Virus record (IMG/VR): IMGVR_UViG_2778261448_000002
Span: 1 to 8,054 of that record
Strand: one strand, 5' to 3'
DNA length: 8,054 nt
From: a virus
Lineage: Duplodnaviria > Heunggongvirae > Uroviricota > Caudoviricetes
Shown here: positions 4,361-4,514 of the stretch, piece by piece
How the letters are laid out: every line of letters starts with the position of its first letter
Position numbering within the stretch: position 1 is the stretch's first letter
Program-made: the position numbers and the translations under genes
Notes under the pieces: model-generated
The model's database searches: none
Told to the model about the DNA's origin: nothing
The model's input: only the letters and a program-made list of their open reading frames with translations

Positions 4361-4435
4361 TGGAGCGGGTAGCGGGAATCGAACCCGCATCATCAGCTTG
4401 GAAGGCTGAGGTAATAACCATTATACGATACCCGC
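4361..4435 (-). tRNA. tRNA-Gly (anticodon UCC), phage-borne, glyT-like
   Basis: Reverse complement GCGGGTATCGTATAATGGTTATTACCTCAGCCTTCCAAGCTGATGATGCGGGTTCGATTCCCGCTACCCGCTCCA folds as a cloverleaf: 7-bp acceptor stem, anticodon stem TCAGC/GCTGA with loop CTTCCAA, perfect T-arm GCGGG/CCCGC, encoded CCA. Confidence 0.9.
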
Positions 4436-4438
4436 ATA

Positions 4439-4514
4439 TGGTGCCGACTACCGGAATCGAACTGGTGACCTACTGATTACAAGTCAGTTGCTCTACCTAC
4501 TGAGCTAAGTCGGC
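4439..4514 (-). tRNA. tRNA-Thr (anticodon UGU), phage-borne, thrU-like
   Basis: Reverse complement GCCGACTTAGCTCAGTAGGTAGAGCAACTGACTTGTAATCAGTAGGTCACCAGTTCGATTCCGGTAGTCGGCACCA: acceptor GCCGACT/AGTCGGC, anticodon stem ACTGA/TCAGT with loop CTTGTAA, T-loop TTCGATT, encoded CCA. One A-C mismatch in the T-stem as I read it. Confidence 0.88.

Follow-up and report, generated by a model that had tools for sequence, protein, structure and literature searches.

Two intact tRNA genes, a tRNA-Thr(UGU) and a tRNA-Gly(UCC), lie 3 nt apart in an 8,054-nt stretch of Caudoviricetes DNA (positions 1 to 8,054 of IMG/VR record IMGVR_UViG_2778261448_000002; the whole stretch is referred to here as the window). 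They are derived from the host genes thrU and glyT and occupy the late region of a lambdoid (lambda-like) Escherichia coli prophage, downstream of the antiterminator gene Q and upstream of the holin/endolysin cassette, with all of these genes on the same strand. Our preferred reading, to which we assign a probability of roughly 0.62, is that the pair consists of two functional tRNA genes carried as late-region cargo, which supplement the decoding of ACA and GGA codons. The Thr-Gly pair as such is known and widespread prophage cargo that has already been annotated. The two genes and their spacer are as follows.

4439..4514, minus strand: tRNA-Thr(UGU), 76 nt, CCA encoded; ARAGORN, Rfam RF00005 73.8 bits (E 3.5e-15), 76/76 identity to K-12 thrU
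4361..4435, minus strand: tRNA-Gly(UCC), 75 nt, CCA encoded; ARAGORN, Rfam RF00005 67.8 bits (E 1.6e-13), a glyT derivative with U6:A67 and U20
4436..4438, minus strand: 3-nt spacer from the CCA end of Thr to position 1 of Gly, TAT on the transcribed strand

ARAGORN called exactly two tRNA genes in the window, Gly(tcc) and Thr(tgt), and the Rfam scores compare with a gathering score of 29 for RF00005. Both calls agree to the base with the initial annotation, made from the letters alone, which had placed a tRNA-Thr(UGU)/tRNA-Gly(UCC) pair at 4361-4514 with the genes 3 bp apart. It had named no strand; both genes are on the minus strand, so that the transcribed order is Thr, the TAT spacer (4438-4436), and Gly. 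The Thr gene ends in ...GGCACCA and has the 7-nt anticodon loop CUUGUAA, and the Gly gene ends in ...CGCUCCA and has the 7-nt loop CUUCCAA; U33 is present in both. The minimum-energy fold of tRNA-Gly is the cloverleaf (z = -3.8). The TAT spacer is the same in every related array that was read or aligned, and in E. coli RM10740 the identical sequence carries the RefSeq labels tRNA-Thr and tRNA-Gly with no pseudogene tag. An Rfam scan of the window gave no further credible RNA; matches to plastid-ycf2 are an opposite-strand reading of the two tRNAs. The possibility that the genes represent an attP site or an integration-site tRNA fragment was rejected: both are full length, the window contains no integrase, and the site lies in mid-prophage between Q and the lysis genes.

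The K-12 thrU-tyrU-glyT-thrT-tufB locus served as the reference for alignments. tRNA-Thr is identical to thrU throughout its length and is clearly unlike thrT, whereas tRNA-Gly matches glyT at 72 of 75 positions. Two of the three changes, C6 to U and G67 to A, convert an acceptor C:G pair to U:A and are compensatory; the third, C20 to U, is in the D-loop. The glyT anticodon arm, first three acceptor pairs, and discriminator are kept, and the anticodon arms of both window tRNAs are those of thrU and glyT. We take the identity elements for ThrRS and GlyRS to be retained, and from these elements normal charging by both enzymes should be expected. In the host, thrU and glyT are single-copy genes for minor tRNAs; thrU reads ACA, and glyT is the sole reader of GGA.

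Likeness to these two genes, including the same anticodons, does not extend to the layout of the operon. In K-12, thrU and glyT are separated by 209 nt that include tyrU, compared with 3 nt in the window, and tyrU, thrT, tufB, and coaA are all missing from the window. Because the K-12 operon layout is absent and the flanks consist of Q, holins, an endolysin, and terminase, the window genes are phage-borne paralogues and the host tufB operon is ruled out as the identity of the locus. The initial annotation had described the pair as thrU- and glyT-like, adjacent without tyrU, thrT, or host flanking genes, and with a possible compensatory acceptor-stem pair in Gly, and the pairwise alignments and phage flanks bear it out on each of these points. 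Its further suggestion, that the Gly gene is a functional diverged copy and not a decayed fragment, is consistent with two intact genes and a compensated stem change.

Codon usage of the phage genes was compared with that of the host and of lambda.

Ten open reading frames (ORFs) of the window: ACA 27% of Thr codons, GGA 27% of Gly codons
Late genes of the ETEC1703 prophage, which is 99.9% identical to window positions 1-4438: ACA 21%, GGA 18%
Early and cargo genes of the ETEC1703 prophage: ACA 37%, GGA 27%
39 K-12 core genes: ACA 10%, GGA 9%
Late genes of lambda, which has no tRNA genes: ACA 11%, GGA 12%

In this comparison, which the initial annotation had proposed, both codons are over-represented relative to the host, in the predicted direction (window versus host, Fisher p = 5e-6 for ACA and 9e-8 for GGA). 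The fractions in phage genes are 2-3.7 times those of the host, and in the AT-rich cargo ORFs of the window they reach 42% for ACA and 47% for GGA. This enrichment is the pattern predicted by the codon-compensation view of phage tRNAs, as given in PMC7946995, which cites Bailly-Bechet 2007. In the preferred reading, Thr and Gly would share a dimeric precursor that comes either from late transcription antiterminated by Q or from a separate promoter immediately upstream of the pair. The two tRNAs would be cut apart by RNase P and 3' exonucleases and then charged normally by ThrRS and GlyRS. The supply of two scarce tRNAs would thereby be raised, for codons that are 2-3 times commoner in phage late and cargo genes than in host genes. 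Lambdoid phages that are otherwise unrelated have this tRNA sequence in common, and it therefore also acts as a homology patch for the exchange of modules.

Several observations weigh against codon supplementation. AGA, AGG, and AUA show a still greater enrichment, yet the window has no tRNA for them, and the codon match is therefore not specific. The excess of ACA and GGA over lambda late genes (1.6-1.8-fold; p = 0.001 for ACA and 0.008 for GGA with ETEC1703-type late genes) is a comparison of one phage with one phage. ETEC1703, despite late genes that are 99.9% identical, has lost tRNA-Thr and keeps only Gly, so Thr is dispensable, at least for a resident prophage. The identity of Thr with thrU could come from host gene conversion and not from selection on the phage copy. 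Finally, the promoter and terminator assignments described below are pattern matches, and promoter-like matches are not above chance.

Signs of maintenance were sought in related loci. ARAGORN was run on all fetched loci, which gave 131 arrays containing the Thr/Gly junction. Identity to thrU is found in 73/131 Thr copies, and most of the others differ only at D-loop positions 16 and 20. At the 6:67 pair of Gly (n = 129 copies), the host C6:G67 occurs in 69 and U6:A67 in 54, with a U:G intermediate in 4 and a mismatch in 2. In the stems of 19 distinct phage-borne Gly variants, 94% of cells are paired; compensatory double changes are seen at two pairs, and single changes are mostly of the wobble type. 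The tRNAs are at least 96% identical between lineages despite flanks that are unalignable, with 34 distinct 80-nt upstream sequences in 57 Thr-Gly-only loci. A neighbouring tRNA slot has decayed in the same loci where Thr and Gly are intact. Gene conversion with host copies could have contributed to the identity of Thr; it cannot account for a persistent phage-specific Gly lineage.

The 131 arrays take several forms, some of which are longer than that of the window.

Thr-Gly only (the window form): 58/131 arrays
tRNA(CAU)-'Lys'(UUU)-Thr-Gly: 42/131 arrays
tRNA(CAU)-Arg(UCU)-Thr-Gly: 18/131 arrays
Second slot an unclassifiable decayed tRNA: 4/131 arrays
Other forms, mostly cut by contig ends or without one member: 9/131 arrays

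The slot-1 tRNA(CAU) is ileZ-like; ARAGORN calls it Met, and RefSeq labels the copy in the N56 prophage tRNA-Ile. The slot-2 'Lys'(UUU) tRNA has an argO-like backbone, and a dead relic of this form remains in the window, directly upstream of tRNA-Thr.

4517..4585, minus strand: dead third-tRNA relic, 69 nt, argO-like, 'Lys UUU' form; alignment to the N56 slot-2 tRNA

Local alignment of the relic with the intact slot-2 tRNA of N56 gives a score of 40, which 0/1000 shuffles reach. An 8-nt deletion removes the 5' T-stem, CCA is changed to TCT, and position 33 is A. The relic was called neither by ARAGORN nor by Rfam at E<=10 with relaxed filters. With no tRNA match at that threshold and the 5' T-stem deleted, the idea that it is a functional, if odd, tRNA was rejected. 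The same relic without the 8-nt deletion is present in IMG/VR loci L079, L103, and L118. A second candidate relic farther upstream (Ile2/CAU, first slot) is not supported, its local alignment score being reached by 665/1000 shuffles. The window pair is thus the 3' half, all that survives, of a longer Ile2(CAU)-Arg/Lys-Thr-Gly array that is intact in other prophages.

Other members of the family show decay and altered anticodons. Some slot-2 tRNAs are Arg(UCU), whose CUUCUAA loop is normal; a larger number are 'Lys(UUU)', whose CCUUUAA loop has C33 and not the near-universal U33 (for example L006 3948-4024, and about 40 IMG/VR loci); further copies have shortened loops that ARAGORN leaves unassigned. 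These loop changes reflect either progressive decay or an unusual anticodon loop. In the SerU-LTIIb locus (L002 8181-8256) and in L090 and L133, a thrU backbone is combined with a UCU (Arg) or UUU (Lys) anticodon. These copies differ from the neighbouring tRNA-Thr by one anticodon base and 1-2 other positions, and are apparently anticodon-shifted paralogues within prophage tRNA arrays. In ETEC1703 (L003 8435-8560), tRNA-Gly stands alone; a segment just upstream of it, in which the TAT spacer is kept, is still about 60% similar to the 3' part of tRNA-Thr. Thr has probably decayed there, and Gly proves to be the array's most persistent member.

The altered slot-2 loop bears on a possible role in defence. 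T5 and mycobacteriophage tRNAs have been described as anti-defence factors, and phage tRNAs can rescue infection from anticodon nucleases. The window copies might likewise stand in for host tRNAs lost during infection to cleavage or inactivation by defence or toxin systems that target tRNAs, and the CCUUUAA loop with C33 in related arrays resembles evasion mutations reported elsewhere. The tRNA with the altered loop is dead in the window, however. tRNA-Thr is identical to host thrU and cannot escape a sequence-specific nuclease, and the three changes in Gly are at 6:67 and D-loop position 20, with none in the anticodon loop. We also know of no E. coli defence nuclease that is specific for tRNA-Thr(UGU) or tRNA-Gly(UCC). 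The T4 and T5 tRNA clusters consist of closely spaced genes whose multimeric precursors are processed and which supplement the host tRNA pool. The tRNAs of T4, T5, and the anti-defence phages are diverged, phage-specific sequences, some with nuclease-evading changes in the anticodon loop, whereas the anticodon loops in the window are identical to those of the host. Nuclease evasion was rejected for the window, since the anticodon arms equal the host's, and a back-up function against defence systems in general seems to us very improbable.

Comparison of the window with its closest relatives points to a recombination joint within tRNA-Gly.

4358..4416, no strand assigned: recombination crossover interval inside tRNA-Gly; comparison of ETEC1703 and RM10740

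The ETEC1703-type prophage matches window positions 1-4438 at 99.9% and has no match beyond; its only mismatch in 4073-4438 is at 4417, which is U20 of tRNA-Gly. With the Rac-type prophage of RM10740, identity is 100% at positions 4358-4700, but the two sequences diverge below 4358, and farther left identity is only about 94% (blastn, 4068-6360). Since RM10740 diverges below 4358 and ETEC1703 mismatches at 4417, the crossover falls within 4358-4416. On this comparison, it joins a Rac-type Q/tRNA module on the right to a lysis and head module of the P27/cdtI type on the left. The exact mosaic was not found in one piece among complete E. coli genomes or the fetched loci, where coverage reached 55% at most. 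Across 106 related loci there are 25 upstream and 14 downstream flank types, which are mixed at the array: one upstream type meets six downstream types, and one downstream type meets nine or more upstream types. The array follows a Q gene of one of four Pfam families, or methylase/ORF6N cargo. The tRNA array is a boundary at which modules reassort, which is what lambdoid mosaic genomes lead one to expect.

A locus of this kind could be a neutral passenger or a recombination scar, picked up once from a host, hitch-hiking at a module boundary, and kept intact by gene conversion with no effect on fitness. Its place at a boundary with so many reassorted flank types, the crossover inside the window tRNA-Gly, and the decay of members (the slot-2 relic in the window, and Thr in ETEC1703) would all be in keeping with this, and the 73 Thr copies equal to thrU are what gene conversion would give. 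The U6:A67 Gly lineage nevertheless persists in 54 copies and has not been converted back to glyT. Stem changes are compensated or of the wobble type, the tRNAs remain nearly identical between lineages with unalignable flanks, and the codon bias matches. In view of the compensated stems, the persistent phage Gly lineage, and the codon match, we consider a purely neutral passenger improbable.

The genes around the pair are those of a lambdoid late region.

6269-5670, minus strand: DUF1367 gene
5670-5380, minus strand: YbcO gene
4841..5383, minus strand: antiterminator Q (Pfam DUF1133, E 1e-103; Phage_antitermQ 27.6 bits, a weak Q21-family match)
2865..3902, minus strand: lysis cassette (Pfam; RefSeq annotation of the 99.9% identical prophage)
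3510-3902, minus strand: holin (Phage_holin_8; Pfam)
3245-3520, minus strand: holin (Phage_holin_3_7; Pfam)
2865-3242, minus strand: M15 endolysin (Pfam)
2218-2793, plus strand: Ais-like histidine phosphatase ORF, 38% GC, elsewhere annotated lipopolysaccharide (LPS) core heptose(II)-phosphate phosphatase
6924-7685, plus strand: HSDR_N-domain ORF, 35% GC

Homologues of the Q protein are annotated elsewhere as antitermination protein Q. The proposed position of the pair between Q and the lysis genes thus holds, with Q at 4841-5383 and the two holins and M15 endolysin at 3902-2865. In related loci, the nearest upstream ORF is a Q of one of the four families in 53/88, and about 60/68 have a holin-family ORF some 0.6 kb downstream; the latter figure is approximate because single-linkage clustering grouped the Phage_holin_8 ORF of the window with the P21 holins, probably on account of an upstream extension that they share. 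The Ais-like phosphatase ORF sits between the lysis and terminase genes in the opposite orientation, and beyond it are a DUF1441 small terminase and then the large terminase, both on the minus strand. Together with the HSDR_N-domain ORF, it represents the AT-rich cargo with the highest ACA/GGA usage of the window. At the right end of the window, a fragment of an IS1 transposase (7620-7997, minus strand) adjoins the Q module, and RM10740 has an IS1 at the same relative place.

Candidate signals for transcription of the pair were identified by sequence conservation and by pattern scans.

4649..4668, minus strand: candidate array promoter, conserved GTGAATGTATATAATGCGCT, with a consensus -10, a GC-rich discriminator, and no convincing -35
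4735..4760, minus strand: intrinsic-terminator-like hairpin, 10 bp with a T-rich tail, about 80 nt past the Q stop codon (scan)
4098-4079, 4056-4039, and 3943-3928, minus strand: three terminator-like hairpins between tRNA-Gly and the holin start (scan)

SerU-LTIIb has the GTGAATGTATATAATGCGCT block ahead of its Thr-Gly pair too, conserved although the surrounding sequence has diverged. The discriminator of the block resembles those of stable-RNA (rRNA/tRNA) promoters, and the block lies near the start of the ancestral array, which could have its own promoter here. A consensus promoter scan did not pick up the 4649-4668 block, and promoter-like matches were no more numerous than expected by chance, either in the window or in two related loci. 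The best sigma-70-like match (4420-4447, minus strand; TCGGCA-16-TATAAT, 10/12) was rejected: it is formed by the 3' end of Thr and the D-arm of Gly, recurs in all related loci simply with the tRNAs, and is probably not a promoter.

Terminator-like sites were more frequent in the region than expected (5 found versus 1.5 expected in the scan), and the hairpins at 4760-4735 and 4098-3928 bracket the tRNAs. The upstream hairpin is conserved in RM10740, 683R6, and SerU-LTIIb, with divergence in the sequence beyond it, and the stretch that starts at the Q stop codon and includes the hairpin is inherited together with the Q type. The hairpin is a candidate for tR' or for the end of the Q transcript. 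Stx phages are the model here, and by analogy the arrangement suggests that pR'/qut and the first terminator lie in the Q-linked block, with the tRNAs downstream of them. pR' was not located by the promoter scan of the region. Of the three hairpins that separate tRNA-Gly from the holin, two are also present in the Rac-type locus of RM10740. A different hairpin, GGTTCYGAGGGG...CCCYGARGAACC, ends 3-7 nt upstream of tRNA-Thr in L001 (4361-4420) and in most Thr-Gly-only loci, and is absent from the window. Four of its 10 predicted pairs show compensatory changes over 15 variants, and it is a candidate processing signal or leader.

If the pair formed a separate transcription unit, its benefit could lie in the lysogen. 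The tRNAs would then be expressed constitutively from their own stable-RNA-type promoter, with transcription stopping at the terminators before the holin. The dosage of two single-copy minor host tRNAs would be doubled, and the main gain would go to AT-rich acquired genes of the host and not to phage late genes, a form of lysogenic conversion. A conserved TATAAT plus GCGC block at 4659-4650, near the expected start of the first tRNA in the ancestral array, and the terminators on either side (one upstream, three downstream) are consistent with such a unit. Arrays stand behind four unrelated Q families and behind non-Q cargo genes, and hence are not bound to one Q/pR' pair. The ACA and GGA enrichment is also strongest in early and cargo genes (37% and 27%) and in the AT-rich cargo ORFs of the window. 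The block has no evident -35, however, the consensus scan made no promoter call there, and promoter-like matches did not exceed chance in any of the three scanned loci. We regard lysogenic conversion by tRNA dosage as unlikely, although it is compatible with codon supplementation.

A search with the 154-nt pair returned 8 deposited phage genomes that annotate adjacent tRNA-Thr and tRNA-Gly genes: vB_EcoS-683R6, Stx2f phage phi467 (LN997803), vB_EcoM-606R7, vB_EcoS-689R5, SerU-LTIIb, PhiR47_1, and JLK-2012 (two records). They have the same two genes in the same order with the 3-nt spacer, at 93-99% identity over 154 nt, and the pair is again between Q (or cargo downstream of Q) and the holin. 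The window differs from them in its rarer Gly variant (U6:A67 plus U20, in 5/131 arrays including the window), in the decayed slot-2 tRNA upstream, and in the P27/cdtI-type lysis/head module downstream. An 86-nt Thr/Gly junction probe, counted as present at coverage of at least 80%, was found in 871/5426 complete E. coli genomes, and a 26-nt junction pattern including the spacer occurs in at least 119 IMG/VR viral contigs. Among one-per-species genomes, the junction is confined to E. coli, Shigella flexneri, E. albertii, E. ruysiae, and Citrobacter braakii, plus a 423-bp stray contig; this distribution fits capture from an Escherichia chromosome. Public annotation of the pair, the decayed third tRNA, and the recombination joint in tRNA-Gly had been missed in the initial annotation.

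That annotation had also held that the Q-to-lysis interval is where Stx phages carry tRNA cargo, and the literature agrees. A published comparison of Stx phages places tRNA genes between q and stx in every stx region, and in the Stx2f phage these are exactly Thr and Gly (PMC7366253). Stx phages such as 933W have an ileZ-argN-argO cassette. Its place in the late region, past Q and ahead of the toxin and lysis genes, is that of the window pair. Longer relatives of the window array begin with an ileZ-like tRNA(CAU) and an argO-like tRNA(UCU), and the presumed role of the cassette is the same, namely to read codons that are rare in the host. The window differs in having lost these members apart from one dead relic, and Thr and Gly are absent from the classical Stx2a cassette.

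The observations can be combined into a more ambitious proposal, in which an autonomous Thr-Gly unit, with a promoter near 4650 and bracketing terminators, is expressed in the lysogen, tRNA-Gly is a preferred site of crossover, and anticodons switch naturally within the family. We hold this combination to be doubtful. If it were true, the capacity of the host to decode ACA and GGA would be altered, which would amount to lysogenic conversion by tRNA dosage; tRNA-Gly would allow lambdoid phages of different Q types to swap lysis and structural modules; and in the wider family, a thrU backbone would have been re-assigned to Arg(UCU) and Lys(UUU). Beyond correct annotation the importance of the pair is small: carriage of tRNA genes in the Q-to-lysis interval is textbook knowledge for lambdoid and Stx phages, and the pair is already annotated in GenBank and RefSeq. 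It marks a module boundary in the late region, and the U6:A67/U20 variant provides a tag with which phage tRNA-Gly can be distinguished from that of the host in tRNA-seq. The decay, recombination, and occasional anticodon switching within this family of arrays could feed a systematic study of the evolution of prophage tRNAs.

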